The notes: generated from the letters alone by a model not told the origin. A stretch of DNA of 52,640 bases from an uncultured Dehalococcoidales bacterium (GCA_964509615.1 CAZDXZ010000001.1:1-52640); one strand, 5' to 3'; shown: positions 3,064 to 23,013, counted from the first letter of the stretch. Numbers and translations: made by a program.

Positions 3064-3492
3064 TTAACCTATTTGCGAACGGCCCAGCTCCCGCAGCACA
3101 CGTTCAAAGACCGCCATATCCTGCCCGGGGATATTTTTTCGAATGGCGGCGTTCAATTCGTCCGCGAAGCCGATGATGCGCGGCCCAACCTCCCTTGCCT
3201 TTTGCGTCAGGTATACCAGAGCGGACCTGCGGTCCTCGACATTCGGCCGGCGCTCCACGTAGCCGTTTTTTTCCATGCGGTCGAGTATGCCGGTGATGGT
3301 TGAGCCATCCAGCGCCACACGCTGCCCCAGCTCGCCGATCGTTATGCCGTCTCCAACCCAGAGGGCGCTGAAAACCATGTACTGCGGCGTGGTCAGATTG
3401 AAAGGCGACAGGCGGGAATCGTAGTGCTCGTAGACACGCCGCATCAATCGCCCGATATTAAAGCAGATATAATCGTCCAGCTCGTTTGTCAT
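3064..3492 (-). CDS. MarR-family transcriptional regulator (142 aa)
   Basis: The track ORF 3064..3828 is over-extended. The MarR-like sequence starts at the internal ATG at 3492 (MTNELDDYICFNIGRLMRRV...TTPQYMVFSAL...ITIGELGQRVALDGSTITGILDRMEKNGYVERR...DRR). Confidence 0.85.
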   Translation of the reverse strand: MTNELDDYICFNIGRLMRRVYEHYDSRLSPFNLTTPQYMVFSALWVGDGITIGELGQRVALDGSTITGILDRMEKNGYVERRPNVEDRRSALVYLTQKAREVGPRIIGFADELNAAIRKNIPGQDMAVFERVLRELGRSQIG

Positions 3493-3520
3493 AACCTGAT
3501 ACTTTTTACACAGAATATTT

Positions 3521-3544
3521 GCATACAATATAATAATTGTATGC
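3521..3544. promoter_or_regulatory. candidate MarR operator: perfect 9-bp inverted repeat with 6-bp AT spacer
   Basis: GCATACAAT-ATAATA-ATTGTATGC in the divergent intergenic region between marR (start 3492) and the CcdA-like gene (start 3659). Confidence 0.55.
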
Positions 3545-3658
3545 GCTTTTGTCAAGGGCAGGTGTGATTGGGTGGATGGGTTGGGGTTAGGCGATCTTGG
3601 TTGCCGGTCCGGAGCGGCGTGGAAAAACGGATTGACACAGGTTGCGGGATTGCTCAAA

Positions 3659-4375
3659 ATGGAGCAAATGGACATACAGGGGCTGTTAGCCGATATCAGC
3701 CTGCCGGGCATCTCCGCCTTCCTGCTCGGTGTGATGGCGGCGATCGGGCCTTGCACACTTGCCGCCAACCTGGCGGCGCTGGCGTATATCAGCCGCAGAC
3801 TTTCTGACCGCAGGTTCGCGGTTACCACCGGGGCCCTGTATACACTGGGCAGGATGATTACCTACACCGTGCTGGGGATGCTGATTATCTATGCCGGGCT
3901 GAGCATTCCCGCGATCGCCAACTTTCTGCAGGATTTCGGTGAGAAGGTGATGGGGCCTTTGCTGATAGCGGTAGGTCTGATCATGCTTTTTCTGGACAGG
4001 ATATCTCTGGGCGAGCACGGGAGCACAGTGGCAAACGCCGCCGGCAGGCTGGCGGATATGGGCATGCTGGGCGCTCTGCCGCTGGGCATTGTGCTGGCTC
4101 TGGCATTCTGCCCCTATAGCGCGGTGCTTTTCTTCGGTGTACTCATACCGCTGGCATTCAAGACCAGGGGTGGCGTGGGGTTGCCGGCTTTATTTGCCCT
4201 GGGCACAGGCCTTCCCGTGATGTTATTCGGTACACTCCTGTCGCTGGGCGTGGTGGGCGCGGCAAAATGGATAAATGCCATTAGCAGGGTGGAGAAATAT
4301 ATAAGGGTAGCCATGGCGCTGATCTTCATTTTGATCGGCCTTCTCTATATATGGCTGTGGCTGAATCCCTATTGA
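3659..4375 (+). CDS. CcdA/DsbD-superfamily (DsbD_2-like) polytopic membrane protein
   Basis: About 6 predicted TM helices and an N-terminal-helix Cys-Pro-type motif (AAIGPCTLAANL). Start trimmed to ATG 3659 (MEQMDIQ); the track start 3572 adds non-hydrophobic junk. Family call is moderate. Confidence 0.55.
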   Translation: MEQMDIQGLLADISLPGISAFLLGVMAAIGPCTLAANLAALAYISRRLSDRRFAVTTGALYTLGRMITYTVLGMLIIYAGLSIPAIANFLQDFGEKVMGPLLIAVGLIMLFLDRISLGEHGSTVANAAGRLADMGMLGALPLGIVLALAFCPYSAVLFFGVLIPLAFKTRGGVGLPALFALGTGLPVMLFGTLLSLGVVGAAKWINAISRVEKYIRVAMALIFILIGLLYIWLWLNPY

Positions 4376-4590: not shown

Positions 4591-6291
4591 ATGGCGGACA
4601 TTTATAGCAAAAAGCCCTGGCTGGCATTTTACGACAAGCAAGTGCCTGCAACGTTGCAGTATCCGGAGACGAGTTTCTGGGAAACGGTGGAGCCGGCGTT
4701 CAAACATGATCCCAAGCGCGTAAGCCTGCACTATATGGGTACCCCGTTCACTTTCAAGCAGATGGACGAGATGTCCAACCGCTTTGCCAATCTGCTCAAG
4801 AAGATCGGCCTGAAGAAGGGCGATACGGTGGGCATAAACCTTCCCAACCTGCCCGCGTATTATATTGGGTTGCTGGGTATACAGAAGGCCGGCTGCGTGC
4901 TGACCGGCGTGAGCCCGCTGCTGACGGCCGAGGAGCTTAACCATCAGCTCAAGGATTCCGGCGCCAAGGTGCTGGTTACGCTCGACGCCCTCTACCCGCG
5001 GGTGATCAAGGGCATCGGCGGCACCGATCTCAAGGCCATTGTTTTCACCGGCATAGCCGATTACATCCCCCCGGTGATGGCGACCTTGGCGAAAATGCTT
5101 AAGAAGATACCCACCGGCAAAGTTCTGCCCATACCCGGCATCGAGATATACCATTTCAAGGATGTGATGAAGAACATGCCGGCCACTCCCGTGGCCGAGA
5201 AGGTCAGCATGGATGATACCTGCGTAATGCAGTATACGGGAGGCACCACTGGCCTGCCCAAGGGCGCGGAATTGACCCACCGCAACATGGTGAGCCAGAT
5301 GTTCCAGGTCACCACCTGGCTGGATACTCAGATGGGAAGCGTGGTAGGCATGACGGCCTTCCCGCTGTTCCATATCGCGGGCCTGCTGGTCTGCATGGCT
5401 ATGATGTCCAAGGCCATCACCCTGATCGCCGTGCCCAATCCGCGCGACCAGCAGTTCATAATAAAGAACATGAAGAAATACCGTCCGAACGTTATCGGCA
5501 ATGTGCCTACGGTATACCTGGAGCTGATGAAGCAGCCCGGGTTCCGCGGATATGATTTCTCCGATGTGCAGTATTTCGCCAGCGGCGCCGCCCCGTTCCC
5601 TCCCGAATATATCAAGGACTTCGAAAAAATTGTGGGCGAGAACAAGCTGGTGGAGGTATACGGGCTGACTGAGACCAGCCCCATCATCACGGCCAATCCG
5701 CGCTATGGGAAGAAGAAACCCGGCGCGGTCGGCATCCCTTTCCCCGACGTCCTGATCAGGATTGTCGATCCGGCGACGGGCGAGGACCTTCCCTTCAATG
5801 AGCCGGGCGAGGTAGCGGTGAAGGGGCCGCAGGTCTTCACCAAGGGTTATTTCAAGAAGCCGCAGGAGACAGCCAATGTACTGCGAAACGGCTGGTTCCA
5901 TACCGGCGATATCGGAAGGATGGACGAGGAGGGATACCTTACCATAGTTGACAGGCTCAAGGACATGGTCAATGTCTCCGGCTTCAAGGTTTTCACCCGT
6001 GAGCTGGATGACATTATCTGCGAGCACCCCGATGTCGACATGGGCGCAACAATCGGCATACAGGATCCCAACAGGCCAGGTTCTGAAATCGTGGCATCGG
6101 CCATCATCCTCAAGCCTGGTATAGAGAAGAGCGAGGCGGAGAAGGCCAAGATCATCGAGTACCTCAAGGGCAAAGTAGCTCCCTACAAGGTCCCCAAGCG
6201 CATAGAGTTCTACGACCAGCTTCCTACCAGCGCCGTGGGCAAGATCTTGAAGAGGGAACTGCGCACCATGATGACCGAGAAGCCCAAGTAA
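4591..6291 (+). CDS. AMP-dependent acyl-CoA synthetase/ligase (FadD-like), first gene of the GRE operon
   Basis: AMP-binding motif MQYTGGTTGLPKG, GYGLTET-type motif (VYGLTETS), TGDIGRMDEEGY, and C-terminal catalytic Lys region PTSAVGKILKRELR. Strong RBS AGGAGG 8 nt upstream. Confidence 0.9.
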   Translation: MADIYSKKPWLAFYDKQVPATLQYPETSFWETVEPAFKHDPKRVSLHYMGTPFTFKQMDEMSNRFANLLKKIGLKKGDTVGINLPNLPAYYIGLLGIQKAGCVLTGVSPLLTAEELNHQLKDSGAKVLVTLDALYPRVIKGIGGTDLKAIVFTGIADYIPPVMATLAKMLKKIPTGKVLPIPGIEIYHFKDVMKNMPATPVAEKVSMDDTCVMQYTGGTTGLPKGAELTHRNMVSQMFQVTTWLDTQMGSVVGMTAFPLFHIAGLLVCMAMMSKAITLIAVPNPRDQQFIIKNMKKYRPNVIGNVPTVYLELMKQPGFRGYDFSDVQYFASGAAPFPPEYIKDFEKIVGENKLVEVYGLTETSPIITANPRYGKKKPGAVGIPFPDVLIRIVDPATGEDLPFNEPGEVAVKGPQVFTKGYFKKPQETANVLRNGWFHTGDIGRMDEEGYLTIVDRLKDMVNVSGFKVFTRELDDIICEHPDVDMGATIGIQDPNRPGSEIVASAIILKPGIEKSEAEKAKIIEYLKGKVAPYKVPKRIEFYDQLPTSAVGKILKRELRTMMTEKPK

Positions 6292-6308: not shown

Positions 6309-7451
6309 ATGAAAAAGCGTCCCGTATTCCGCACCGAACTTTGCGACATGCTTGGCACCGAATATCCGGTGATGCTGGCGGGGATGGGGACTGCAGGCGG
6401 CTACACTTTGACCGCCGCGGTTTCCAACGCCGGCGGCCTGGGCATGCTCGGCGCCACGTTTTTATGGCCTGATGAGCTCAGGGAATGGATCAGGAAAATA
6501 CGCTCCCTCACCGATAAGCCTTTCGGCGTCGACATATTGCTGCCGGCAGCCATACCCAAGGATTTCGACCTGGATAAGCTCAAGGACTACATCCCTCCCG
6601 AGCACACGGAATTTGTCCGCAAGATGGCCAAAGATTTCGGTGTCGAAGGCGCTAAAATGAAGGAGTGGCCCATCTCCGAGGAGTTCGGATGGAGCCAGTT
6701 CCAGGTGGTGAAAGAGGAGAAGGTTCCCTTCTTTGCCCTGGGACTGGGCACGCCCGACTGGCTGATACCGGAGGCGCATGAAGCCGGCATCAAGATTGTG
6801 TCGCTGGTAGGCAATGTACGCAACGCCGTCCGCATTAAAAAGATGGGGGCCGATATTATCATTGCCCAGGGACATGATGCAGGCGGACATACCGGCAGGG
6901 TAGGTACCATGGCCCTTGTTCCTCAGGTAGTGGATGCCGTGGCGCCCACGCCCGTGGTAGCCGCCGGCGGCATAGCCGACGGCCGCGGCCTTGTGGCTGC
7001 GCTGGCATTGGGCGCCATCGGCGCCTGGTGCGGTACCGCCTTTTTAGCCACCCGTGAATGTTTCTGGGATTTCGTTGACTTCGGCATGCTCAACAAGCCT
7101 ACTATCGAAGCCTATTATCGCAAGCTCATCGAGTCTGACGAAGAGGCCGAGCAGATCACCCGCATTTACAGCGGCAAGACCACCAGATCTTTTAAAAACA
7201 AGCTTAGCGAGGCCTGGGACAAGTCAGGCCTGAAAACCCTGCCCATGCCTCTGCAGAGCATGCTGGTCTCCGACCTGCTGCAGGGCATGATGGAGAAAGG
7301 CGAAGCCGAATATTATCCCATGTTCGCCGGGCAGATCACGGGACTGATCAAGGAGATCAGAAGCGCACAGGAAGTTATGGACGATATCATCGGCGGGGCT
7401 GTGAAAATCATGCAAAAACAATTCCCGTCGGAGGTGACCATTAAGGCCTGA
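6309..7451 (+). CDS. nitronate monooxygenase / FabK-like FMN-dependent oxidoreductase (NMO family TIM barrel)
   Basis: GMGTAGGYTLTAAVSNAGGLGMLGA, IIAQGHDAGGHTG, VVAAGGIADGRG. RBS GAGGAG. Confidence 0.85.
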   Translation: MKKRPVFRTELCDMLGTEYPVMLAGMGTAGGYTLTAAVSNAGGLGMLGATFLWPDELREWIRKIRSLTDKPFGVDILLPAAIPKDFDLDKLKDYIPPEHTEFVRKMAKDFGVEGAKMKEWPISEEFGWSQFQVVKEEKVPFFALGLGTPDWLIPEAHEAGIKIVSLVGNVRNAVRIKKMGADIIIAQGHDAGGHTGRVGTMALVPQVVDAVAPTPVVAAGGIADGRGLVAALALGAIGAWCGTAFLATRECFWDFVDFGMLNKPTIEAYYRKLIESDEEAEQITRIYSGKTTRSFKNKLSEAWDKSGLKTLPMPLQSMLVSDLLQGMMEKGEAEYYPMFAGQITGLIKEIRSAQEVMDDIIGGAVKIMQKQFPSEVTIKA

Positions 7452-7493: not shown

Positions 7494-8294
7494 ATGGAGT
7501 ATGAAGGTCTGATACTTGAGAAGAAGGATTACGTGGCGACATTGACCATGAACAGACCGCACAGATTGAACGCGCTGACGGGTGAGATCAGCAACGAGTA
7601 TTTGCCCAGGATATTCAGGGACCTGCAGGAGGATGATGACGTCCGTGCGCTTATCATAACCGGCGCGGGCAAAGGTTTCTGCACGGGCGCCGACGTCATT
7701 ATTTTCAACCAGGCGGCCGAGGAAGGAAGGCTGCAGGAGCTGCTGGAGCCACATGCCCAGACCATCGGCGGCGCATTCGTGATGGGCCTGTATAATCTGC
7801 AGAAGCCGGTCATTGCCGCCGTCAACGGGGTGGCCGCAGGCGGCGGCGTGTCGCTGGCGCTGCTGGCCGACATCAGGATCGCTTCAGAGAAGGCTTTGTT
7901 CAATATGGCTTTCGTCATGCGGGGACTGATACCCGATTGCGGCTGCACCTACCTTATGCCGCGCCTGCTGGGCACGGGGCGCAGCTACGAATACATGTAT
8001 ACCGGGGCGACTATCGACGCGCGCGAAGCGGAGCGCATCGGGCTGGTAAACAGGGTCGTACCACATGAGAAGCTGATGGAAGAGGCGGAAGCACTGGCGG
8101 CCAGGATCGTGCAGGGCCCCCCGCTGGCCTATAAGCAGATCAAGCGCGCGGTGCAGAGCGGCCTGCACAACACCCTGGAACAGCAGCTCTTTATCGAGAC
8201 ATACGCGCAGAAGAACCTGATGGGAAGCGAGGATTTCCGTGAGGGGCTCAACTGCTTCAGGGAGAAGCGGATGCCCGAGTTTAAGGGACGCTGA
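7494..8294 (+). CDS. enoyl-CoA hydratase/isomerase (crotonase) family protein
   Basis: LTMNRPHRLNAL, ITGAGKGFCTGADV, AAVNGVAAGGGVSLALLADIRIA, and the typical C-terminal EGLNCFREKR. Confidence 0.9.
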   Translation: MEYEGLILEKKDYVATLTMNRPHRLNALTGEISNEYLPRIFRDLQEDDDVRALIITGAGKGFCTGADVIIFNQAAEEGRLQELLEPHAQTIGGAFVMGLYNLQKPVIAAVNGVAAGGGVSLALLADIRIASEKALFNMAFVMRGLIPDCGCTYLMPRLLGTGRSYEYMYTGATIDAREAERIGLVNRVVPHEKLMEEAEALAARIVQGPPLAYKQIKRAVQSGLHNTLEQQLFIETYAQKNLMGSEDFREGLNCFREKRMPEFKGR

Positions 8295-8342
8295 TAAATA
8301 GTAATAAATAAACAGCTTATACAGGAATAGGAGGAACACCTG

Positions 8343-10988
8343 ATGAAAGATTTCGATGCCGTAGTGGTGGGGGCGGGCCTGGGCGGAATCTCCGCTGCGA
8401 CCTACCTGGCCAAGGCGGGCAAGAAGGTTGTGCTGCTGGAGAAACATAATGTGCCGGGCGGTTATGCGACTTCGTTTCTGAGAGGGCGCTTTGAATTTGA
8501 GATCGCCCTGCACCAGCTCTCCGGTTACGGGACGGAGGAGGATAAGGGGCCCATCTGGAAAATCCTGCATGACAGCGGTGTCTCGGACCGTGTGGACATA
8601 CTGCACATCCCGGACCTGTACCGCAGCATTTTCCCCGATTTCACCATCGAGCTTCCCAAGGGCAGGCAAAACTATGAGGACGCCCTGTGCAGCCAGTTCC
8701 CGCGGGAGGCCGAGGGCATCAAGAAATTCTCCAATATCATGTTCGAATTCGCCAGGCAGGCCATGCGATCCATGCGGGTGGGCATGAAGGCGGTGATGGA
8801 GAATCCATCCGAGTACCCCGAGCTGGTCGGCAATTTCGGCAAAACGCTGTCCGAGGTGCTCAATCCTCTGGTATCCGATGAGAAGGCGCGGGCAGTGATC
8901 GGGCAGCTGTGGGGCTACTTCTGCCAGCCGCCCTCCAAGATGGCGTTCCTCATCTATGCCCTGGGACTGGTCAGCTACATCAGGTTTGGCCCGGCCCATG
9001 TCAGGGGGACGTCGCAAAATCTCTCACAGGCTTTTATCGATACGATGGAATCCTACGGCGGCGAGGTCTGGTTCAACAACGGCGCCAGGAAGATTATTGT
9101 AAAGGACGGCAAGGTGCGGGGAGTGCTGACGGAGGACGGCACCGAGATCGCCACGCAGCACGTCGTGTGCAGCGCCAACCCGGTGACCACCAGCCTGGAG
9201 CTGGTCGGGCGCGACAACATGCCGGGCTGGTACCTCAACCGGCTGGGCGGATGGAGCGGCGGCGCCAGCACATTTAACATCTACGTGGGCCTGGACTGCC
9301 CCTGCCAGGATGTCGGGCTTAACGTACACGAGAATTTCGTCAATAAGACTTATGACCTGGACGCACAGTACGAAAATATGCGCAATTCGCTTGATTATGA
9401 GCCGGACGGCAATGCCATCGTGGCTTACAACGTGGTTGATCCGACCGTTTCGCCCAGGGGCACGGCATCGTGCGTGATCACGCAGATAGCCTATGCCGAC
9501 CCCTGGCTGAAGCTGTCCCCATCCGAATATGTAGTGGCCAAGAACAGGATGGCTGAAAAGGTGCTCAAGCTGGCGGAAGTGGCGGCGCCGAATCTGAGGG
9601 AGCATATCGAGGTGATCGAGGTTGCCACGCCGCTGACCAATATCCGCTACACGGGAAATCCGCGCGGCAGCATCATCGGATTCGACGAGAACTTCACCGG
9701 TACCGGGTTCCTGCGCATACCCATGCGCGGGCCGCTGGAGGGGCTGTATTTCGCCAATGCCTGGGTCAATATCGGAGGTGGATTCGAATCGTGCATCGCC
9801 TCGGGCGCAATGGCATCGCGAGAAGTGCTGCGCGACATGGAGAAGGGTCCCTGGGATGCGGGCGAGATAACCAAGATGAAGGAATCGCTGGAAAAGCAAA
9901 AGGTGCAGGCTCATGAGCTGAAGGACACCATCACACCCGAGGATAAATTCGTGAAGAGCATCCATCCCCGCAGGCTGCAGCTCAAGGTCAAGGAGATAGT
10001 CAAAGAGACGGCCAGCGCCAAGACTTTTAGGTTGGAATCCAAGAACGGCCGGCTACCGCACTTCCGCGCCGGCCAGTATATCAACCTCTTCGTGGATATC
10101 AAGGGTGTCAAGACCTCGCGACCCTACAGCATATCGTCGACGCCGGGCAAGCCGTACTATGACATCACGGTACGCCGTGTTGACGGCGGCTTCGTTTCGC
10201 ACTACCTGCTGGACAGCGTCAAGGTCGGTGACAGCTTTGAATCAACCGGTCCCAACGGATATTTCTACTATGAGCCGCTGATGGACTCGTCGGACCTCGT
10301 TCTCCTGGCGGGCGGCAGCGGCGCAGCGCCTTTCATCTCCATCATTCGCGAGACTATTGAAAAGAAGCAGCCGCTGAAGATACATCTGATCTACGGCAGC
10401 CGCAAACCGGATGACATAATCTTCGAAAAAGAGCTTAAAGAGATCGTTGCCAAAAACAAGAACATCAAGGTCGATTACGTGATGAGCGAACCCCCGGCGG
10501 GCTGGAAGGGCGCCTCGGGCTTCCTGGATGACAAGGTGATCTCGAAGCTTGCGGGCGATCTGAAGGGAAAGACGGTGTTTGTGTGCGGACCGGCGCTGAT
10601 GTATGAGCTCTGCGGACCGGCGCTGGCCAAGCTGGGTGTGCCCGCCAGGCGGACCAAGCGCGAAGCATACGGGCCGCCGCAGGATGTGACCAAAGAGCCT
10701 GCCTGGCCAGGAACAGCCGCGTCCAAGGAATTTGAGGTCATTGAAATGCGGAGCGGCAAGAAAGCCAAAGCCAAGGCCGGTGAGCCGCTGATGAACTCGC
10801 TGGAACGGGCGGGCATCGTGGTACCGGCCATCTGCCGCTCCGGTGAGTGCACGGCCTGCCGCACCAAGCTGATCTCAGGCAAGGTCTTCACACCCTCCAG
10901 GGTGCATCACCGCCAGGCGGACAGGAAGTCGGGATATATTCATCCCTGTATGAGCTATCCTCTTGACGATCTGCGGATCAAAGTGTAA
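8343..10988 (+). CDS. three-module fusion: CrtI/phytoene-desaturase-family FAD oxidoreductase + FNR-like FAD/NAD(P)-binding reductase + plant-type 2Fe-2S ferredoxin (881 aa)
   Basis: N-terminal Rossmann DAVVVGAGLGGISAATYLAKAGKKVVLLEKHNVPGG. From about aa 537, RPYSISS (RxYS), LLAGGSGAAPF (GGxGxxP) and VFVCGP. C-terminal CRSGECTACRTK...HPC (Cx4Cx2C...C). Confidence 0.85.
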   Translation: MKDFDAVVVGAGLGGISAATYLAKAGKKVVLLEKHNVPGGYATSFLRGRFEFEIALHQLSGYGTEEDKGPIWKILHDSGVSDRVDILHIPDLYRSIFPDFTIELPKGRQNYEDALCSQFPREAEGIKKFSNIMFEFARQAMRSMRVGMKAVMENPSEYPELVGNFGKTLSEVLNPLVSDEKARAVIGQLWGYFCQPPSKMAFLIYALGLVSYIRFGPAHVRGTSQNLSQAFIDTMESYGGEVWFNNGARKIIVKDGKVRGVLTEDGTEIATQHVVCSANPVTTSLELVGRDNMPGWYLNRLGGWSGGASTFNIYVGLDCPCQDVGLNVHENFVNKTYDLDAQYENMRNSLDYEPDGNAIVAYNVVDPTVSPRGTASCVITQIAYADPWLKLSPSEYVVAKNRMAEKVLKLAEVAAPNLREHIEVIEVATPLTNIRYTGNPRGSIIGFDENFTGTGFLRIPMRGPLEGLYFANAWVNIGGGFESCIASGAMASREVLRDMEKGPWDAGEITKMKESLEKQKVQAHELKDTITPEDKFVKSIHPRRLQLKVKEIVKETASAKTFRLESKNGRLPHFRAGQYINLFVDIKGVKTSRPYSISSTPGKPYYDITVRRVDGGFVSHYLLDSVKVGDSFESTGPNGYFYYEPLMDSSDLVLLAGGSGAAPFISIIRETIEKKQPLKIHLIYGSRKPDDIIFEKELKEIVAKNKNIKVDYVMSEPPAGWKGASGFLDDKVISKLAGDLKGKTVFVCGPALMYELCGPALAKLGVPARRTKREAYGPPQDVTKEPAWPGTAASKEFEVIEMRSGKKAKAKAGEPLMNSLERAGIVVPAICRSGECTACRTKLISGKVFTPSRVHHRQADRKSGYIHPCMSYPLDDLRIKV

Positions 10989-11024: not shown

Positions 11025-13421
11025 ATGACTACAAGAACAGTGAACTTAATGGTTAAAACTCCCATCAAGGCGCAGCAGGTGGCGCTGGATTATCTGAGCG
11101 CCGATGCCAGGGCGACGCGGCCCGGTTTCATCTGGTCGCTCGATCTGGAACGCGCGAGGCTGGTGACGCAGTCTTACAAAATGACCGAAGGCCAGCCGAT
11201 AATCACCCGGCGTGCCAAAGCGCTGGCGCATATACTGGATAATATGACCCTTTACATCAGGCCCGATGAAATGATCGTGGGTAATTATGCCTCCAACAGC
11301 GACTCGGTGCCTTTTTACCCTGAGCTGGCCTGGAAGTGGATAGCCAGGGAGACCGCTCCGGGGCAGGTCTACCAGAGCATGCTCAACGATGAGGGCAGAA
11401 AGGAATTGAAGGAGATCGGCGAGTACTGGGGAGACCGCTCCATCCACCACATGAGCAAGAAATACCTTACCCCCGAGCTGAAGGAGCAGTTCTGGATCTT
11501 CAACTGGGAATCAGCCACACCCAACTATGACAAGATACTCTCCATAGGTTTGAAAGGCATCCTGGGGGAAGCCAGAGAGAGGTTGAAGAAGCTCGATCGA
11601 GAATACATGGACGAGACGATCAACGGCATTGATTTCGTCAGCAAAAAGGAATTTCTGGAGAGCACCATCATCAGCATGGAGGCGGTGTGCAGGTGGTCGA
11701 AGAGGTATGCTGAGCTGGCGCGCAGCCTGGCGAAATCAGAGAAGGACGTGCTCAGGAAAGTTGAGCTCGGCAACATTGCCGAGGCCTGCGAACAGGTGCC
11801 GGAGCACCCGGCGCGCACGCTGCTCGAGGCAATACAGTCATACTGGTTCATCCACCTGGTAGTCAACTTCCTCGAGATGCCCCAGGTGGGTTCCGGCGTA
11901 CGCTTCGACGTGGTATTCAACCCGTTCTATGAGAAGGACCTGGCCGCGGGCAAGATAACACGTGAATCGGCGCAGGAGCTGGTGGAGTTCCTTTTCGTTA
12001 AATTCCAGGAGACGGGCTTCCTGCATGCGCCTATCTGGTCCGGCTTCGGCGGTGGGGCGCTGGGGTTCCAGACCGTCACAATCGGCGGTGTGGACTCCAA
12101 GGGCCGAGATGTCACAAATGAGATGAGCCTTATCATCCTCGATGCCACCAAGACCGTCCGCGCCATCGTGCCGCCGCTGGCGCTGCGCTGGCATGACGGC
12201 ATACCGCGCAAGCTGGTGGACAAGGCTATCGAGTGCCTGGCATCCGGGATGCCGCAGCCGGCTATCTTCAACGACAAGGTGTGTGTGCTGAGACTGGTCA
12301 ACATGGGCACGCCGCTTGAGGATGCACGCAACTACTCCATCAACAACTGCATGGTGCCCACCATACCCGGCAAAAACTTCAGCCACATCTCGGCCTGGGC
12401 CAGCGGTGTGCCGGCGCCCCTCTGCCTCAACCAGGCGCTGGGCATAGACCCGCTGGCTATCTATAAGAAAGCGGGCAACAAGGTGCTCGATCCCGAGAAA
12501 GTAAAGTCCATGCAGGAAGTTTTCGATGCGTTCATAGAGAACTACCGGCTGGTGATTCACCGTCTGGTGCGCATCGCCAATATCGCAGACGCCCTTTACA
12601 AAGCGTGGGCGCCGCGCCCCTTCCTGTCTTCCGTTATCGATGACTGCATCGAGAGGGCGCAGGATGTGCGCGATTGGAACTATATGCCCGATTACCGCGA
12701 TGTAACGCTTTTCGGCCTGAACACGGTGGCAGATTCGCTGACAGCCGTGAAAAAGGTGGTTTTCGACGACAAAAAGATCAGCATGAAGCAGCTTGTGGAA
12801 GCTTTGAAGAACAACTGGAAAGGTTACGAAGAGATTCGCCAGCTATGCCTGCGCGCCCCCAAGTTCGGCAATGACGATGATTATGCCGATCTGATCTCGA
12901 GCGAGGTTGCACGCAGAATAGAAGAGGAGACCAGCAAATGCAAGACCAACTGGGGCACATCGGTGCATGTGGACGGGACCGCCGCCACCGCCTGGTGGAG
13001 CTTCGGCCGCGTTTGCGGCCCGACCCCGGATGGGAGGATGAGCGGAGATCCCTTCAACGACGGGACCATCTCCCCCATGGCGGGACGTGATAAGAAAGGC
13101 CCTACCGCGGTGCTCAAATCCGTAGCGAAGGTAGACCCGCTGGAGAGCTGGAACCACCTCTTCAACCAGAGCTTCATGCCGCAGTTCCTGGTGGGACACA
13201 ATGCCGAGGTCTTCGCTCAATACCTGAAGACTTTTGCCGACATGGGGATACACCATATCCAGTTCTCCACGGTCAACAGGGAGACACTGGAGGATGCGCA
13301 GGACCATCCTGAGAAATATCCCACACTGATGGTCAGGGTGGCTGGATTCGCCGCGTACTTCGTCGATCTCGACCGCAGCATCCAGGATTCCATCATAGCC
13401 AGGACTCCGCAGTGCTTTTAA
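11025..13421 (+). CDS. glycyl radical enzyme, PFL2/PflD-like (798 aa)
   Basis: C-terminal glycine-radical motif MVRVAGFAAYFVDLDRSIQDSIIARTP (Gly774). Candidate thiyl Cys442 in ...DARNYSINNCMVPTIPGK.... N-terminus is typical of the PFL2 family (ERARLVTQSYKMTEGQP..RRAKAL). RBS AAGGAGG. Confidence 0.9.
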   Translation: MTTRTVNLMVKTPIKAQQVALDYLSADARATRPGFIWSLDLERARLVTQSYKMTEGQPIITRRAKALAHILDNMTLYIRPDEMIVGNYASNSDSVPFYPELAWKWIARETAPGQVYQSMLNDEGRKELKEIGEYWGDRSIHHMSKKYLTPELKEQFWIFNWESATPNYDKILSIGLKGILGEARERLKKLDREYMDETINGIDFVSKKEFLESTIISMEAVCRWSKRYAELARSLAKSEKDVLRKVELGNIAEACEQVPEHPARTLLEAIQSYWFIHLVVNFLEMPQVGSGVRFDVVFNPFYEKDLAAGKITRESAQELVEFLFVKFQETGFLHAPIWSGFGGGALGFQTVTIGGVDSKGRDVTNEMSLIILDATKTVRAIVPPLALRWHDGIPRKLVDKAIECLASGMPQPAIFNDKVCVLRLVNMGTPLEDARNYSINNCMVPTIPGKNFSHISAWASGVPAPLCLNQALGIDPLAIYKKAGNKVLDPEKVKSMQEVFDAFIENYRLVIHRLVRIANIADALYKAWAPRPFLSSVIDDCIERAQDVRDWNYMPDYRDVTLFGLNTVADSLTAVKKVVFDDKKISMKQLVEALKNNWKGYEEIRQLCLRAPKFGNDDDYADLISSEVARRIEEETSKCKTNWGTSVHVDGTAATAWWSFGRVCGPTPDGRMSGDPFNDGTISPMAGRDKKGPTAVLKSVAKVDPLESWNHLFNQSFMPQFLVGHNAEVFAQYLKTFADMGIHHIQFSTVNRETLEDAQDHPEKYPTLMVRVAGFAAYFVDLDRSIQDSIIARTPQCF

Positions 13422-14371
13422 ACTCACAGGAGGCCGGCGAGACGGGCGACGTTAAGTCTGAAAAAGACCTGAAAGGGCTGGTATTTAATATCCAGCGCTA
13501 CAGCATTCACGACGGACCGGGCATAAGGACGACGGTCTTTTTCAAAGGTTGCCCGCTGCACTGCAGGTGGTGCTCCAATCCGGAATCTATCAGTCCCAAG
13601 CCCGAGATACTGGTGAGGGAGGCCGGGTGCAACGGCTGCCGGCGCTGTTTAGACGTTTGTTCGGCGGGAGCTTTATCACTGGCCTCCACCGGCCTGTGGC
13701 TGGACAGGGCTAAATGCGACCTCTGTCTGAAATGCATTGACGCTTGCTGGGAAGACGCGATAGAGGTGGCCGGGCGTTATATGACGCTCGATGAGGTGGT
13801 GGAAGAGTGCCGGAGGGACGAGCCCTTCTACCGCAACTCCGGCGGCGGCGTAACGCTTTCGGGAGGCGAGCCGCTGTTGCAGGCGGACTTCGCCCTGGCG
13901 CTTCTCAACAGGTGCAGAGCGCTGGGCTATAACACAGCGCTGGATACCTGCGGGCAGGTAGCATGGGGCGTTCTGGACAGGGCGCTCGATTCTGCCGACC
14001 TCATACTATTCGATATCAAGCATCTGGATGCCGATGAGCACCGGGACGGCACAGGCGCGGACAACAAGCTGATTCTGTCCAACCTTGAGAAAGCTGTGAG
14101 TTCCGGCAAGTCGCGGATCTGGATCAGGATTCCCGTGATACCGGGATACAACGACTCCAGCGAGTATATTGATAAGCTGGCCGCCAGGTTGCGCGGTATG
14201 AAGGCCGAGAAAGTGTCTGTGCTCGGTTATCACGAGTTCGGCCGTCCCAAATACCAGTCGCTGGGGAAGGCCTACCAGCTCAGCGGCCGCAAGCCGCTGG
14301 GCAGTATCCGCCTCAACGAGATCGTGGATATATTCAAGTCGGCCGGCCTGGACGCCACCGCAGGGTATTGA
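13412..14371 (+). CDS. glycyl-radical-enzyme activating enzyme (radical SAM, with two auxiliary ferredoxin-type clusters)
   Basis: GPGIRTTVFFKGCPLHCRWCSNPE (CxxxCxxC), then CNGCRRCLDVC and CDLCLKCIDAC, then SGGEPLLQ. The GTG start overlaps the GRE stop by 10 nt. Confidence 0.9.
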   Translation: MLLNSQEAGETGDVKSEKDLKGLVFNIQRYSIHDGPGIRTTVFFKGCPLHCRWCSNPESISPKPEILVREAGCNGCRRCLDVCSAGALSLASTGLWLDRAKCDLCLKCIDACWEDAIEVAGRYMTLDEVVEECRRDEPFYRNSGGGVTLSGGEPLLQADFALALLNRCRALGYNTALDTCGQVAWGVLDRALDSADLILFDIKHLDADEHRDGTGADNKLILSNLEKAVSSGKSRIWIRIPVIPGYNDSSEYIDKLAARLRGMKAEKVSVLGYHEFGRPKYQSLGKAYQLSGRKPLGSIRLNEIVDIFKSAGLDATAGY

Positions 14372-14419
14372 CAGCTGGGCCTGGCGGCTCGCAGCCGGCG
14401 CAGGATTAGACAAAATATA

Positions 14420-14453
14420 GGGGCTTCGCCGAAGCGAAGCCCCTTGATCTTTC
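14420..14453 (+). terminator. Rho-independent terminator closing the GRE operon
   Basis: GGGGCTTCGC-cgaa-GCGAAGCCCC, a perfect 10-bp stem (14420..14443), followed by the T-rich TTGATCTTTC. Confidence 0.7.
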
Positions 14454-15935: not shown

Positions 15936-15959
15936 TGACCGGTCAATTAACGATTGACC
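15933..15959. promoter_or_regulatory. candidate operator: 16-bp perfect palindrome plus a third half-site
   Basis: AATTGACCGGTCAATT (15933..15948) overlaps the -10 hexamer. A further ATTGACC lies at 15953..15959. Confidence 0.5.
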
Positions 15960-16007
15960 ACAAGACGGGAACACATCGCGCCGTTGGCGATGCGGGTCGG
16001 AGTCGAA

Positions 16008-17714
16008 ATGGATAAATACCCCTGGTTTAAGAATTATGATGAAGGTGTGCCTCGCACACTTGAGCCCTATCCCCCAACGACTATGATCGAGGTGGTCGAT
16101 GAATCGGCCCGAACCAAACCCTACAGGGCCATGTTCTATTTCAAGGGGCATAGGCTACTCTATTACGACTTTGTAAGGCAAAGCGATGCACTGGCCGCGG
16201 GCCTGGTTGCCCAGGGCATAAAGAAGGGGGACCGCGTGGCCCTGCTCCTTCCCAATTCGCCGCAGATGGTGCTGGCTTTTCAGGGCATCTGGAAGGCAGG
16301 CGCAATAGCCGTCCCTATCAACCCACTCTACACCGAACACGAGCTCAAGCATGCACTAATGGAGGTGGGCGCCTCGGCGGTGATAGTGCTGAATCCCTTC
16401 TACGCAGCCATCAAGAATATACAGTCCGGCACCGTGATCAGGACCGTTATTGCCACCAGCATCAAGGAATACCTGCCGGCGCACCTGGGCCTGCTTTTCA
16501 CACTGGCCAGGGAGAAGAAGGAGGGCTACCGCATATCTCTTCAGAAGGGTGACGTCTGGTTTCAGGAACTGCTGCGGCGGCACAGAAACGATCCCAGACC
16601 TGATATTCATGTCGGGCCGGAGGATGCAGCCGTGATACTTTTCAGCGGAGGTACCACCGGCACTCCCAAGGGCGCCGTCGGCACACACGGCGCCCTCATT
16701 ATGACCGCCATGCAGATCAATGCCTGGCTCGGCCCTGTGCTTGAGAAATGGGAGGACAAAGTGGCACTGACCATGCCGCTATTCCACGTTTTTGGATGTG
16801 CGGGTGCTCTGGGGACCGCCATGATAAACCGTTCGTCCTGCATCCTTATTCCCAACCCGCGAGATATCACCGACGTGGTCAAAAGCATCAGGCAGTACAA
16901 GCCGGCCTTCATGCCCGGCGTACCCACGTTTTACATCGGCATTATGAACCATCCCCTGGTGAAATCGGGCAGGATTAAGTTGTCGGGCATGAAAATTTGC
17001 ATCGTGGGCGCCGCCCCTCTGATGGCCGATACCAAGAAACAGTTTGAAAGCATGACGGGCGGAAGGCTGCTGGAAGGCTATGCCATGACGGAGACCATGC
17101 AGGCGGCGACGCTCAATCCTGTGATGGGTGTTAATAAAGAAGGCTCGGTGGGCATGCCTCTGCCCGACGTGATTATTAAGATCGTGGATGCCGAGACCGG
17201 CCGGGACAGCATGAAAGCCGGCGACCTTGGCGAGATATGTTTTAAGGCCCCGAACCTGATGACCGGCTACTGGAACAGGCCACAGGAAACAGCGGATATG
17301 CTGAGGGACGGCTGGCTGTATACCGGCGACATCGGTTATCTCGATAATGACGGGCACCTCTTCCTGCACAGCCGCAAGAAGGATATAATCAAGACCAGCG
17401 GTTTTCAAGTCTGGCCGCGCGAGGTAGAGGAGGTGTTGCATGAGCACCCGGCGGTTATGGAGGCCAGCGTAGCCGGCGTGCCCGATCAATACCAGGGCGA
17501 AGCGGTTAAGGCATGGGTAGTTTTGAATAGCGGGATGAAATGTTCGGCCGATGAGCTCAGGGAGCATTGCCGCTCCAAACTATCGGCTTACAAGGTGCCC
17601 CGGTACATAGAATTTAAAGATAATCTGCCTAAAACCCAGATTGGCAAGATTCTGAGGAGGGTTTTGATCGAGGAAGAGAAAGGCAAACAGGGAGGGGAGA
17701 CCGATAACACATAG
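16008..17714 (+). CDS. FadD-like AMP-dependent acyl-CoA ligase, array paralog 1
   Basis: Start trimmed to ATG 16008 (MDKYPWFKNYDEGVP), matching the N-termini of the paralogs. ILFSGGTTGTPKG; LPKTQIGKILRR. Confidence 0.88.
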   Translation: MDKYPWFKNYDEGVPRTLEPYPPTTMIEVVDESARTKPYRAMFYFKGHRLLYYDFVRQSDALAAGLVAQGIKKGDRVALLLPNSPQMVLAFQGIWKAGAIAVPINPLYTEHELKHALMEVGASAVIVLNPFYAAIKNIQSGTVIRTVIATSIKEYLPAHLGLLFTLAREKKEGYRISLQKGDVWFQELLRRHRNDPRPDIHVGPEDAAVILFSGGTTGTPKGAVGTHGALIMTAMQINAWLGPVLEKWEDKVALTMPLFHVFGCAGALGTAMINRSSCILIPNPRDITDVVKSIRQYKPAFMPGVPTFYIGIMNHPLVKSGRIKLSGMKICIVGAAPLMADTKKQFESMTGGRLLEGYAMTETMQAATLNPVMGVNKEGSVGMPLPDVIIKIVDAETGRDSMKAGDLGEICFKAPNLMTGYWNRPQETADMLRDGWLYTGDIGYLDNDGHLFLHSRKKDIIKTSGFQVWPREVEEVLHEHPAVMEASVAGVPDQYQGEAVKAWVVLNSGMKCSADELREHCRSKLSAYKVPRYIEFKDNLPKTQIGKILRRVLIEEEKGKQGGETDNT

Positions 17715-17750
17715 CTGCCACTGTAAAAATTATGAAGGGAGGTTGTATCG

Positions 17751-19451
17751 ATGACAGAATCATATCCCTGGTTTAAAAGTTATGATGCGGGGGTGCCGCA
17801 CACACTGGAACCTTATCCGCAGGTGACTTTTCTGGACGTGGTGGAAGACGCGGCAAAAAAAGGGCCCGATCACAGGTTCCTTATTTTCAAGGACAGGACT
17901 ATCAGCTACAGCGAACTGGTCCGGCTCTACTCGGTGTTTGCCGCGGCCCTCAAGGCCAACGGTGTGAAAAAGGGCGACCGAGTTGCCATATTGCTGCCCA
18001 ACTGCCCGCAGGGCTTTATCAGCTCGTTTGCAGCCTGGAAGGCCGGAGCAATACCTGTACCGCTCAATCCCATGTACACCGAGCACGAATTGCAGCACTG
18101 CCTCAAGGAGTGCGGCGCCGAGGTTGCCATCGTGCTGACGCCTTTTTACGCCACCGTTAAGAAGATCCAGCCCCAGACCAAGCTAAGATTGATCATAGCT
18201 ACCAATATCAAGGAATACCTCCCGCCTTTCCTGGCCACCATGTTCACGCTGCTCAAGGAGAAGAAGGAAGGGCACAGAATTGCTATCCAGGCGGGCGACC
18301 TGCGGATGGCAGAGCTCATGAGCAAGCATGCCGCCGACCCGGCGCCCGATAACAAGCCCGGCTCAGAAGATGTTGCGCTGCTGCTTTTCAGCGGAGGCAC
18401 GACGGGCGTTCCCAAGGGCGTCATTATAACGCATAAATGCCTGGTCGCAGAGGCCTGGCAGCTCAAGGTCTGGAATGACAGCGTCCTGACGGAATGGGAC
18501 GATGTGGTTATGATGATTATGCCGCTCTTCCACGTCTACGGCTTTGCGGGTGTGATGGGCACGTCCATCATGGGACACAATCCGCTGGCCGTTGTTCCCA
18601 ATCCGCGCGATCGAGATGATGTGGTAAAGACCATTAATAAAGTGAAACCGGCATATTTTCCGGCAGTCCCCACGATGTTCATTGCGTTGTTGGAGCACAA
18701 GCTGGTGAAGGCAGGGAAGGTAGATTTCAAATCCATGAAGCTATGCGTAGCATCGGCGGCGCCTTTGCTGCCTGAGACCAAGCGACGCTTTGAGGATTTG
18801 ACCGGCGGCAAGCTGATTGAGGGTTATGGTATGACGGAGGTGACCGCAGCCATCACACTTGGCCCGGTTGAGGGAAAATGGACGCCCGGATCGGCCGGCA
18901 TTCCTCTGCCTGATGTTATTCTACGTATCGTGGACGTTGAAACGGGGGAGAAAGACATGCCGCTGGGGACGGAGGGTGAGATCATCGCCAGGTGTCCTCA
19001 GGTGATGGTGGGCTACTGGAACAGGCCGGAGGCCACGGCGGAGATGATCCGCAACGGTTGGCTGTATACAGGAGATATCGGCTATCTCAACGATGAAGGT
19101 TGCCTCTTCATCACGTCGCGCAAAAAGGAATTGATCAAGCCGGGCGGCTTCCAGGTCTGGCCGCGCGAGGTTGAAGAGTGTATAAGCACCTATCCCAAGG
19201 TGGCGGAGGTGGGAGTGGCGGGGATTCCCGATGCGTACCAGGTCGAGGCCGTCAAAGCTTGGGTGGTGTTGCGCGAGGGAGAAACTGCTACGGTGGAGGA
19301 GATTCAAGCACACTGCCGTGAGAAACTGATAGCCTACAAGGTGCCCAAGCATATCGAATTCAGGACCGAATTGCCCAAGACAATGGTGGGCAAGATACTG
19401 AAACGTGTACTCGTTGAGGAGGAGATAGCCAGACAAAAAGCGGCGAAGTGA
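17751..19451 (+). CDS. FadD-like AMP-dependent acyl-CoA ligase, array paralog 2
   Basis: MTESYPWFKSYDAGVP; LLFSGGTTGVPKG; LPKTMVGKILKR. RBS GGGAGG. Confidence 0.9.
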   Translation: MTESYPWFKSYDAGVPHTLEPYPQVTFLDVVEDAAKKGPDHRFLIFKDRTISYSELVRLYSVFAAALKANGVKKGDRVAILLPNCPQGFISSFAAWKAGAIPVPLNPMYTEHELQHCLKECGAEVAIVLTPFYATVKKIQPQTKLRLIIATNIKEYLPPFLATMFTLLKEKKEGHRIAIQAGDLRMAELMSKHAADPAPDNKPGSEDVALLLFSGGTTGVPKGVIITHKCLVAEAWQLKVWNDSVLTEWDDVVMMIMPLFHVYGFAGVMGTSIMGHNPLAVVPNPRDRDDVVKTINKVKPAYFPAVPTMFIALLEHKLVKAGKVDFKSMKLCVASAAPLLPETKRRFEDLTGGKLIEGYGMTEVTAAITLGPVEGKWTPGSAGIPLPDVILRIVDVETGEKDMPLGTEGEIIARCPQVMVGYWNRPEATAEMIRNGWLYTGDIGYLNDEGCLFITSRKKELIKPGGFQVWPREVEECISTYPKVAEVGVAGIPDAYQVEAVKAWVVLREGETATVEEIQAHCREKLIAYKVPKHIEFRTELPKTMVGKILKRVLVEEEIARQKAAK

Positions 19452-19515
19452 TGATCCGAAAAGGTAATTAGGCGTTTGGCGCTTAATCATAATAACAAAT
19501 CAAAGGAGGCTTATC

Positions 19516-21207: not shown

Positions 21208-21220
21208 TTACGTGAGTAAG

Positions 21221-21250
21221 GCTGTCCCCGGCCTGAGGGCCGGGGACAGC
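21221..21250 (+). other. GC-rich perfect hairpin between paralogs 3 and 4 (no T-tract)
   Basis: GCTGTCCCCGGCC-tgag-GGCCGGGGACAGC, 13-bp stem, followed by ttgaaaat. Confidence 0.6.
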
Positions 21251-22986: not shown

Positions 22987-23013
22987 AGGATCATTCTTAC
23001 TCAAAATAATAGA

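Follow-up and report, generated by a model that had tools for sequence, protein, structure and literature searches.

A CrtI-like flavoenzyme fused to an FNR-like reductase and a [2Fe-2S] ferredoxin in Dehalococcoidia: an uncharacterised family, widespread in metagenomes, and a possible self-sufficient acyl-CoA saturase

The stretch of DNA analysed here, the window, comprises 52,640 nucleotides from an uncultured Dehalococcoidales bacterium (GCA_964509615.1 CAZDXZ010000001.1:1-52640). Our subject is the gene at 8343..10988, which encodes a CrtI-like flavoenzyme, an FNR-like reductase and a ferredoxin in a single chain. The open reading frame (ORF) begins with ATG and continues without interruption through 881 codons to the stop. 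Translation and Pfam agree with the initial annotation, which had described an uninterrupted 881-aa ORF with CrtI-like, FNR and Fer2 parts and their motifs. The gene and its parts are:

8343..10988, + strand: fusion gene, 881 aa, CrtI-like flavoenzyme, FNR-like reductase and plant-type [2Fe-2S] ferredoxin (ORF, translation, Pfam, homologues, AlphaFold2)
8329..8334, + strand: Shine-Dalgarno sequence AGGAGG, 8 nt before the ATG at 8343 (direct sequence reading)
8343..9842, + strand: CrtI-like FAD domain (COG1233 / amine-oxidase fold), aa 1-500, with GAGLGG at 10-15, E33 and F52-E-I-A-L-H57 (Pfam, alignment with CrtI 4dgk, Foldseek)
9843..9974, + strand: helical linker, aa 501-544 (AlphaFold2 helices, split loci, alignments of stand-alone reductases)
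9978..10271, + strand: flavin-binding beta-barrel of the FNR-like reductase, aa 546-643, with R593-P-Y-S in RPYSIS 593-598 (Pfam FAD_binding_6, invariant R593 and P594, Foldseek match to phthalate dioxygenase reductase (PDR) 2pia)
10302..10607, + strand: NAD(P)H-binding domain, aa 654-755, with GGSGAAP 657-663 and CGP 748-750 (Pfam NAD_binding_1, invariant residues)
10749..10961, + strand: plant-type [2Fe-2S] ferredoxin domain, aa 803-873, with the ligands C831-x4-C836-x2-C839...C869 (Pfam Fer2, invariant Cys)

The four Pfam matches all exceed the gathering score: Amino_oxidase at 13-496 (78 bits), FAD_binding_6 at 546-643 (53 bits), NAD_binding_1 at 654-755 (78 bits) and Fer2 at 803-873 (35.5 bits). 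In an alignment of 65 homologues, the GxGxxG glycines G14/G15, E33, H57, R593, P594, G657-G660, C748-G-P and the four cysteines are invariant, while the motifs R593PYS, G657GSGAAP, C748GP and C831/C836/C839/C869 as a whole are invariant or nearly so. An AlphaFold2 model of the whole 881-aa chain, built on this alignment, has a mean pLDDT of 90.7 and a pTM of 0.91, and the pTM suggests a compact chain with a fixed inter-domain arrangement. The linker helices of the model span residues 481-501, 508-518 and 530-540.

The C-terminal half is a PDR-type module, as had been proposed on first reading; the domain order, the motifs and the fold all agree. In Foldseek this half matched PDR 2pia with a TM-score of 0.78, and also cytochrome b5 reductases and the reductase part of the self-sufficient P450 CYP116B46 (6laa/6kbh). 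By comparison with the PDB sequences, 2pia aligns to residues 546-870 of the fusion. The nearest NCBIfam models for the C-terminal 340 aa (residues 544-880) are GbcB, the Hcr-like NADH oxidoreductase PRK10684 and PaaE. The sequence 'YGSRK', which follows strand two of the NAD domain, may point to a preference for NADPH.

The N-terminal half aligns with CrtI 4dgk over residues 7-499 (E 1e-12). In Foldseek it matched the gamma-carotenoid desaturase 4rep (TM-score 0.84), together with CrtI 4dgk and the plant phytoene desaturase 5mog. Is the protein then an ordinary desaturase or isomerase of carotenoid biosynthesis (CrtI, CrtD or CrtISO) with an incidental reductase? The fold, these best structural matches and public annotations of the type 'phytoene dehydrogenase-like' favour such an assignment. 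However, all of the curated carotenoid models in NCBIfam score far below their cut-offs on this half: carotenoid isomerase TIGR02730, still the best match, gives 120.6 bits against a cut-off of 586.9, CrtD TIGR02733 gives 110.4 against 549.7, crtI_fam TIGR02734 gives 108.6 against 238.1, and CrtO gives 74.8 against 1000. Furthermore, no phytoene synthase was seen among the annotated ORFs of the window or in the typed loci, the gene context is one of acyl-CoA metabolism, and the hosts are uncultured anaerobes. The only prenyl-diphosphate synthase of the window (46342-47304) lies about 36 kb from the fusion amid housekeeping genes. We consider a role in carotenoid biosynthesis exceedingly improbable. 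The matches of both halves are far below the curated cut-offs, and no curated NCBIfam family covers the fusion; in the PDB, by sequence and by Foldseek, no solved structure spans both halves.

A distinctive feature of the CrtI-like half is the motif F-[DE]-x-[SA]-L-H, which lies just past the FAD-binding beta-meander and reads F52-E-I-A-L-H57 in the window. The motif is common to most relatives of this half in which the region can be read, and this applies to fused, split and stand-alone forms alike. In the 4dgk alignment, CrtI lacks a His at the position equivalent to His57. Two distant four-domain relatives (P0237 and P0245) have F-S-T-G-[LV]-H-Y at this site, which may be the motif of RetSat. 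His57 is a candidate residue for covalent attachment of the flavin. In Actinomycetota (L003 12804-19561; L037, L042, L084), the fusion is followed directly by one to four tandem stand-alone CrtI paralogues of 498 aa. These are 24-31% identical to the N-terminal half of the fusion and have the classical F-D-x-G motif, and none of those checked for the His motif has the His. They might draw electrons from the reductase of the fusion in trans.

A search of 5.8 billion protein clusters with the fusion gave 936 matches at E<=1e-10. The best 120 of these are 55-93% identical to it, and nearly all are 880-883 aa long and aligned at 100% coverage. The same four-domain Pfam set was found in 120 out of 120, so that the joining of two genes by a frameshift or an assembly error, which the initial annotation had named as a possible artefact, is ruled out by full-length homologues in many independent assemblies. 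Apparent breaks were seen in L066, L075, L081 and L083; since these lie inside domains and involve a different reading frame, they appear to be sequencing errors or pseudogenes. Clustering at 50% gave 15 full-length clusters among the best 150 matches, and Pfam confirmed the four-domain architecture in 4/4 scanned full-length clusters that are 26-43% identical to the window protein. Over an identity range of 93% to 26%, the chain retains all four domains.

In species-representative GTDB genomes (one genome per species), relatives of the fusion were found at 234 sites. The best 80 of these are all from metagenome-assembled genomes (MAGs), and their hosts are Dehalococcoidia/Chloroflexota, anaerobic Actinomycetota (Anoxymicrobiaceae, Geothermincolia, Solincola), Desulfobacterota/'Deltaproteobacteria', Anaerolineae and Myxococcota. 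A Dehalococcoidia MAG has the closest relative among them (96%), and several genomes encode two or three paralogues. That the hosts are anaerobes bears out the anoxic setting assumed at the outset. The public names of the homologues are generic: 'FAD-dependent oxidoreductase', 'phytoene dehydrogenase-like protein/ferredoxin-NADP reductase' and, for several members in JGI, 'prolycopene isomerase'. No characterised member of the family was found in the searched literature (full text), NCBIfam or the PDB, and the full-text searches gave no paper on the CrtI-like + FNR + Fer2 architecture. The 2026 benzene 'Magic cluster' (PMC13101534) was considered and is unrelated, being a GlcDEF-like complex. 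Thus, the fusion joins the CrtI superfamily to the PDR-type reductase class and belongs to no characterised family. The initial annotation knew of no characterised example, and this stands. Its description of the architecture as unusual holds relative to characterised enzymes and fails for metagenomes, where, with 936 matches and 234 sites, the family is uncharacterised yet widespread.

Do the two halves work together? In four deeper-branching genomes (Anaerolineae, Anaerolineales, Myxococcota and Thermodesulfobacteriota; 42-47% identity) they are encoded by separate genes. The break falls exactly at the linker in all four: a CrtI-like ORF of 513-546 aa ends in TAG or TGA, and an FNR+Fer2 ORF of 392-417 aa starts with its own ATG 0-40 nt further on, with the linker as the N-terminal extension of the separate reductase. 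About 45 further clusters of stand-alone FNR+Fer2 proteins (37-53% identity) carry the linker in the same way, and these stand-alone reductases align from query residues ~509-537. Two of the stand-alone FNR+Fer2 genes were examined, and each overlaps a preceding CrtI-like gene of 500-510 aa by 8-11 nt. The two genes of these distant relatives appear to be translationally coupled. In a rough neighbour-joining (NJ) tree, which has no support values, the split forms are the deepest branches. The four split loci (L069, L070, L072, L074) all have the downstream reductase ORF in the frame of the CrtI-like ORF (4/4; chance about 1 in 81), which may be left over from an earlier fusion, though the opposite course is also conceivable. 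Programmed read-through was considered for these loci and rejected, since the stops differ (TAG, TGA), the reductases have their own ATGs, one has a clear ribosome-binding site, and L070 has two in-frame stops.

The CrtI-like half has further relatives in different fusions. P0191 (L142-L144; 33% identity to the CrtI-like half; 971 aa) consists of Pyr_redox_2, a BFD-type 2Fe-2S domain and a CrtI-like part, that is, a different NAD(P)H reductase is joined at the N-terminus of the CrtI-like part; its neighbours are a type III polyketide synthase (PKS), a ketosynthase (KS) and an acyl carrier protein (ACP). P0222, P0240, P0263 and P0266 combine a CrtI-like domain with one or two hotdog thioesterase domains in 800-1103 aa. 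All five are 31-34% identical to the CrtI-like half and have the same F-D/E-x-S-L-H motif. These arrangements show the two halves of the fusion to be dedicated partners. Since P0191 carries a different reductase and 2Fe-2S domain, a need for electrons from NAD(P)H by way of a 2Fe-2S centre arose at least twice in the CrtI subfamily. Given the fused, split and P0191-type forms, this need is a property of the subfamily, met in at least three genetic arrangements.

The fusion gene lies in a cluster with the following features:

4591..6291, + strand: acyl-CoA ligase (FadD-like), first gene of the putative operon (Pfam AMP-binding, NCBIfam)
6309..7451, + strand: FabK-like FMN enzyme (NMO family), alpha,beta position of acyl thioesters (Pfam NMO)
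7494..8294, + strand: PaaG-type crotonase-fold protein with a single-Asp delta3,delta2-enoyl-CoA isomerase signature (alignments, PDB matches)
11025..13421, + strand: glycyl radical enzyme (GRE), PFL2/eliminase clade, with an atypical Cys loop and the glycyl motif RVAG774F (Pfam/NCBIfam)
13412..14371, + strand: GRE-activating radical SAM enzyme (TIGR02494, 345 bits, above cut-off)
14419..14444, no strand: 11-bp GC-rich hairpin, terminator-like on both strands (sequence)
3064..3828, - strand: MarR-family regulator, divergent, kept upstream of the cluster in close relatives (Pfam MarR)
15954..28180, + strand: seven tandem acyl-CoA ligase paralogues (FadD-like) (Pfam)

A promoter-like site lies at 4443-4470, upstream of the first ligase gene. 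The strong hairpin after the activase gene suggests a six-gene operon from 4591 to 14371, and this hairpin is likely to be the end of the ligase-to-activase operon. The divergent MarR gene is also found in L007-L012, L016, L087, L092 and L114. An RlmN-like gene beyond the hairpin was rejected as a part of the system, with the strong hairpin between them and with the gene missing from the alternative gene order in L020, L024 and L038. Its ORF as called (14444-15862, TTG at 14444, 472 aa) begins inside the hairpin, and the real start is for this reason probably further downstream; the homologue beside P0009 has 344 aa. The seven tandem ligases are 47-80% identical to one another and 32-37% identical to the operon ligase (4591-6291). 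Similar runs of ligases lie downstream of related clusters (L007-L017 and L087-L101), and the tandem ligases suggest a broad range of carboxylic-acid substrates.

Further downstream, the minus strand encodes a 761-aa fusion of a GatZ/KbaZ-like protein (tagatose-bisphosphate aldolase non-catalytic subunit family) with a tagatose-kinase-like PfkB domain (28245-30530), and a CoA-disulfide-reductase-like flavoprotein with a C-terminal rhodanese domain (30573-32606), in which an N-terminal extension of some 118 aa may result from calling the ORF too long. Two plus-strand ORFs, 32365-33312 (315 aa) and 33395-34192 (265 aa), have no Pfam or NCBIfam match.

The crotonase-fold protein encoded immediately upstream of the fusion is labelled 'enoyl-CoA hydratase' by Pfam. 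However, both hydratase Glu residues are replaced (GGGVS, FNMAF), and the Asp is kept in GLIPDCG. Its best PDB matches, 6sl9 and 3hrx (E ~1e-56), carry generic titles and have the same aligned signature; we take them to be Thermus PaaG. It also matches 4fzw_C, by title the E. coli 1,2-epoxyphenylacetyl-CoA isomerase, with E 8e-50. Among 50 crotonases adjacent to the fusion, of all context types, the PaaG-type signature is present in every row that covers the region. Judged by these residues, the protein is most likely a delta3,delta2-enoyl-CoA (or oxepin-type) isomerase and not a hydratase, a function most likely shared by the fusion-adjacent crotonases of Actinomycetota and other lineages. 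The FabK-like protein scores 238 bits with NCBIfam FabK, below the cut-off, and its nearest PDB entries are the FabK enoyl-ACP reductases 5gvh, 7l00 and 2z6i.

The gene neighbourhood was compared over 42 loci with at least 3 kb on both sides of the fusion, the genes being typed by BLASTP against a small reference set with simple ORF calling. A crotonase-fold protein is the most constant neighbour (69% of the 42 loci), followed by an acyl-CoA ligase (60%), a FabK-like NMO protein (48%), a thiolase (36%), a GRE (33%, 14/42), TetR (26%), DUF35 (26%), extra CrtI paralogues (19%) and an acyl-CoA dehydrogenase (17%). In Dehalococcoidia the order is MarR (minus strand), ligase, FabK-like, crotonase, fusion, GRE and activase, then ligase paralogues, or, in a rearranged form, FabK-like (minus strand), GRE, activase, crotonase and fusion. 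In Actinomycetota it is acyl-CoA dehydrogenase, TetR, DUF35, thiolase, thiolase, DUF35, crotonase, FabK-like and fusion, then 1-4 stand-alone CrtI paralogues. A third recurrent layout is crotonase, fusion, two acyl-CoA dehydrogenases and thiolase, and a fourth is TetR (minus strand), ligase and fusion.

The initial annotation set the fusion in the context of the GRE encoded immediately downstream. How general is this link? Seen from the GRE side, the fusion adjoins the GRE, in either gene order, in 16/16 well-flanked metagenomic loci with a GRE of at least 73% identity. From the side of the fusion, only 14 of the 42 well-flanked loci bear a GRE, and all 14 are from Dehalococcoidia, so the link is real but clade-specific: it is tight within this clade, and it does not hold as a property of the family. 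In the NJ tree the GRE-linked fusions form three sub-clades within the Dehalococcoidia clade, interleaved with TetR-ligase paralogues. More constant partners than the GRE are the PaaG-type isomerase, the acyl-CoA ligases and the FabK-like protein, with thiolase/DUF35 pairs and acyl-CoA dehydrogenases in Actinomycetota as well. In a sister clade of the GRE (L109-L113), 70-71% identical and with the same Cys loop, no fusion lies within 8 kb; the cluster there contains GRE, activase, acyl-CoA dehydrogenase, FabK-like protein and ligase. A FabK-like protein and a ligase accompany the GRE both with and without the fusion.

The closest relative of the window GRE is the B12-independent glycerol dehydratase (alignment to 1r8w). 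The Cys loop reads Y-S-I-N-N-C442-M-V-P, with Val in place of the general-base Glu of the eliminases (G-C-V-E-P), and this atypical loop is kept in 48 orthologues. The GRE probably represents a new reaction type.

Could the reductase tail simply serve the GRE-activating enzyme, with the CrtI-like domain incidental? GRE activases need a one-electron donor, and in the window the genes for the GRE and the activase come directly after the fusion, which also adjoins the GRE in the 16 orthologous loci. However, two thirds of the well-flanked fusion loci have no GRE, fused or split forms occur without a GRE in Actinomycetota, Desulfobacterota, Myxococcota and Anaerolineae, and the sister GRE clade lacks the fusion. 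Moreover, the potentials of plant-type 2Fe-2S centres are generally too high for the [4Fe-4S] clusters of activases. This proposal is largely refuted by the distribution, and we regard it as highly improbable.

What, then, does the tail do? The natural reading of the fusion, as the initial annotation held, is a self-sufficient NAD(P)H-linked enzyme. Reductase modules of this domain order, in PDR, PaaE, Hcr, VanB and CYP116B, donate electrons from NAD(P)H. Because the characterised modules are donors, electrons are expected to flow from NAD(P)H to the FAD of the CrtI-like domain, and we consider it very probable that the FNR+Fer2 tail reduces this flavin. E0' is about -10 mV for enoyl-CoA/acyl-CoA and -320 mV for NAD(P)H. 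Reduction of a C=C bond is thus downhill, while desaturation linked to NAD+ is about 0.3 V uphill. The suggestion of a 'desaturase or saturase' therefore survives in part: the donor modules and the thermodynamics argue against a desaturase and leave a saturase or an isomerase with reduced flavin. We lean to one of these two because desaturation coupled to NAD+ reduction is so strongly uphill.

The substrate is probably an acyl thioester, because the neighbours of the fusion are crotonases, ligases, FabK-like proteins and thiolases, because related CrtI-like domains are fused to hotdog thioesterases, and because P0191 is found with PKS, KS and ACP genes. No alcohol or aldehyde dehydrogenase was found in the operon by Pfam annotation of the window ORFs, and the entry substrate for this reason appears to be a carboxylic acid and not a hydrocarbon. 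By analogy, the fusion and the PaaG-type crotonase beside it would correspond to the classical pair of dienoyl-CoA reductase and delta3,delta2-isomerase.

We suggest the following reaction, as a tentative reading that we prefer to the others without holding it to be established: the protein would be a self-sufficient, O2-independent enzyme with three cofactors that carries electrons from NAD(P)H to the CrtI-like FAD, saturates an unsaturated acyl-CoA and passes the product to the PaaG-type isomerase. NAD(P)H would reduce the flavin of the FNR-like domain, from which electrons would move one at a time through the C-terminal [2Fe-2S] centre to the FAD bound by the N-terminal CrtI-like part. Once reduced, this FAD would saturate a C=C bond of a dienoyl-, polyenoyl-, isoprenoid or alicyclic acyl-CoA, one that is beyond the reach of ordinary enoyl reductases or beta-oxidation. 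We propose that a 3-enoyl-CoA would result, which the adjacent PaaG-type delta3,delta2-isomerase would shift into conjugation. In Dehalococcoidia the FabK-like enzyme would take the next step; in Actinomycetota this would fall to acyl-CoA dehydrogenase and thiolase. The sequences show the domain make-up, the cofactor motifs, the retention of the fusion, the partnership of its halves and the association with genes of acyl-CoA enzymes; from these and from analogy we infer which way the electrons flow, that the substrate is a thioester, and that it undergoes net reduction and not isomerisation.

Several points weigh against a saturase. Of the characterised enzymes in the wider group, CtmAB and the delta-24 desaturase oxidise their substrates at allylic positions, CrtISO carries out a redox-neutral isomerisation, and RetSat is the only saturase precedent known to us. 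The invariant His57 stands at the site of the covalently bound flavin in CtmAB and delta-24 desaturase, and covalent flavins usually favour oxidation of the substrate. The hotdog and PKS fusions belong to relatives of 31-34% identity and not to the four-domain fusion itself. No beta-oxidation genes are present in the GRE-linked clusters. Finally, enzymes of the FabK family also include dehydrogenase/isomerases (FabX, PMC8626469), and the FabK-like neighbour leaves the direction open.

The CrtI-like domain could instead catalyse a redox-neutral cis/trans or positional isomerisation, for which the reductase would only prime the FAD or keep it reduced. TIGR02730 is the best NCBIfam match of this half, JGI names several homologues 'prolycopene isomerase', and the neighbouring PaaG-type isomerase shows that double bonds are shifted within the pathway. 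[quoted passage not shown] However, the TIGR02730 score is far below its cut-off, and a permanently fused, stoichiometric three-domain reductase is a costly device for priming in a cytoplasm that is already reducing. The retention of the fusion or of a reductase partner in at least five bacterial lineages, together with a second independent fusion, suggests a continuous demand for electrons. An isomerase is in our judgement unlikely.

A third possibility is an O2-independent allylic dehydrogenation or hydroxylation of a terpenoid, steroid or unsaturated acyl substrate, as in the Ctm and delta-24 desaturase enzymes, with the tail as a reductive activator or an electron outlet. In Castellaniella defragrans the COG1233 flavoproteins CtmA and CtmB are encoded together with the 2Fe-2S ferredoxin CtmE and the NADH:ferredoxin oxidoreductase CtmF, and ctmE mutants are unable to use limonene (PMC4109377). 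In CtmAB and the delta-24 desaturase of Sterolibacterium the flavin is bound to a His in the N-terminal motif G-F-[LR]-x-[NS]-[TL]-H-A (PMC11061730). The F-x4-H spacing of this motif recurs in the fusion, with His57 as the invariant His, and both known enzymes serve an anaerobic isoprenoid catabolism that continues via CoA esters. However, in the window sequence, E51-F-E-I-A-L-H57-Q, only F, L and H agree with the published motif. None of 269 relatives has this motif exactly or nearly so, with the [LR] position included, and the ORFs of the fetched loci contain no exact copy of it. Both enzymes are heteromers of two paralogous subunits without Fe-S centres (PMC11061730), while the fusion has one CrtI-like domain per chain and a 2Fe-2S centre, and the window has no second CrtI-like paralogue. 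The fusion is set apart from this family by the published motif and the subunit make-up. In addition, the operon has no alcohol or aldehyde dehydrogenase to take a hydroxylated hydrocarbon to the acid, and the transfer of electrons from an allylic oxidation to NAD+ is thermodynamically unfavourable. We judge a reaction of this kind decidedly unlikely.

If the saturase reading is correct, what would it mean? The reduced-flavin enzymes of the CrtI fold and the anaerobic Ctm and delta-24 enzymes have no clearly defined physiological redox partner, and the fusion hard-wires one. With the partner in the same chain, or encoded by a coupled gene, the question of the redox partner becomes testable with a single recombinant protein. 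The fusion would provide the first defined route of electron supply, from NAD(P)H via flavin and 2Fe-2S, for a flavoenzyme of the RetSat/CRTISO type. Members of the family abound in sediments, aquifers and lakes, in uncultured Dehalococcoidia, anaerobic Actinomycetota and Desulfobacterota, and to our knowledge the enzymes that hydrogenate or degrade unsaturated lipids and isoprenoids in these environments are largely unidentified. The GRE link in one clade points to an unexplored anaerobic pathway; the fusion and the new type of GRE would together make up an undescribed anaerobic pathway for unsaturated carboxylic acids in Dehalococcoidia. It is possible, though doubtful, that we are dealing with a previously unrecognised class of O2-independent, NAD(P)H-driven CrtI-fold saturases, which would act, in anoxic sediments and aquifers, on isolated or conjugated C=C bonds of CoA-activated lipids or isoprenoid or alicyclic acids and be associated in Dehalococcoidia with a new type of GRE. 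Biocatalysis, too, could profit from an ene-reductase that is self-sufficient, driven by NAD(P)H and active on non-activated double bonds.

How does the fusion compare with known systems? The closest solved structures of the N-terminal half, CrtD-like 4rep and CrtI 4dgk (TM-scores 0.84 and 0.72, 17-18% identity), share with it the GxGxxG motif and the three-domain fold. Unlike the fusion, they are without F-[DE]-x-[SA]-L-H (CrtI has F-T-F-D-A-G-P-T-V), and they are peripheral membrane proteins that pass electrons to quinones or O2 and lack a partner reductase. For the tail, the PDR-type modules offer the same flavin barrel, NAD(P)H domain and C-terminal plant-type 2Fe-2S domain, with the same motifs and the same fold. 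The class VII P450s (CYP116B, P450-RhF) are likewise self-sufficient through an N-terminal catalytic domain followed by a PDR-like tail. In contrast to these, the catalytic domain of the fusion is a flavoprotein of the CrtI/amine-oxidase fold and not a heme or non-heme iron oxygenase, so that no O2 chemistry is implied. Pfam finds no p450 domain in the fusion, and CYP116B, its nearest analogue in architecture, is an analogue in that respect only.

In function, the nearest analogues are the 2,4-dienoyl-CoA reductases, FadH of E. coli and the mammalian DECR, with a delta3,delta2-enoyl-CoA isomerase. In FadH the electrons pass from NADPH through FAD, an Fe-S centre and a second flavin to the C=C bond of an acyl-CoA, as in the chain proposed for the fusion. 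DECR yields a 3-enoyl-CoA that needs a delta3,delta2-isomerase, and most fusion loci have a PaaG-type isomerase as partner. However, FadH is an old yellow enzyme-type TIM barrel with a 4Fe-4S centre and DECR is a short-chain dehydrogenase/reductase, so there is no homology of the catalytic domains; the fusion has no Pfam match to Oxidored_FMN or Fer4, and the analogy with FadH is one of function only. The chemistry proposed for the fusion is that of the CRTISO/RetSat branch, in which, with reduced FAD, the carotenoid isomerase CRTISO isomerises and the retinol saturase RetSat saturates isolated or polyene C=C bonds. Their known substrates are carotenoids and retinol, not thioesters, and we know of no fused or dedicated reductase for either enzyme. 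With TIGR02730 as a proxy for this branch, the score of the fusion falls well short of the family's threshold.

The delta-24 steroid desaturase of Sterolibacterium denitrificans is a CtmAB-related flavoprotein that acts without O2 on an isoprenoid side chain, beside an existing double bond, and its physiological electron partner is undefined (PMC11061730). Unlike the fusion, it is an alpha4beta4 protein with covalent FMN as a stable semiquinone, has no Fe-S centre or fused reductase, and catalyses an acceptor-dependent oxidation (PMC11061730). The initial annotation missed an unfused precedent for the present architecture, namely CtmAB with CtmE and CtmF in limonene degradation (PMC4109377). 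This system has the same three modules as the fusion and is likewise independent of O2; the Ctm pathway proceeds via a CoA ligase and crotonase-family enzymes, and CtmAB has the His at the same F-x4-H spacing in its N-terminal flavin motif. It differs in that the modules are separate polypeptides, CtmAB being a heterodimer of paralogues with covalent flavin (PMC11061730), and in that the reaction is an oxidation, the hydroxylation of an allylic methyl group. The annotations of CtmE and CtmF point to an alphaproteobacterial (Caulobacter) ferredoxin and NADH:ferredoxin oxidoreductase as their relatives, and we presume them to be of a type other than FNR/PDR with plant-type Fer2. CtmABEF is the nearest known system to the fusion, with the same three functions residing in separate proteins of anaerobic limonene catabolism.

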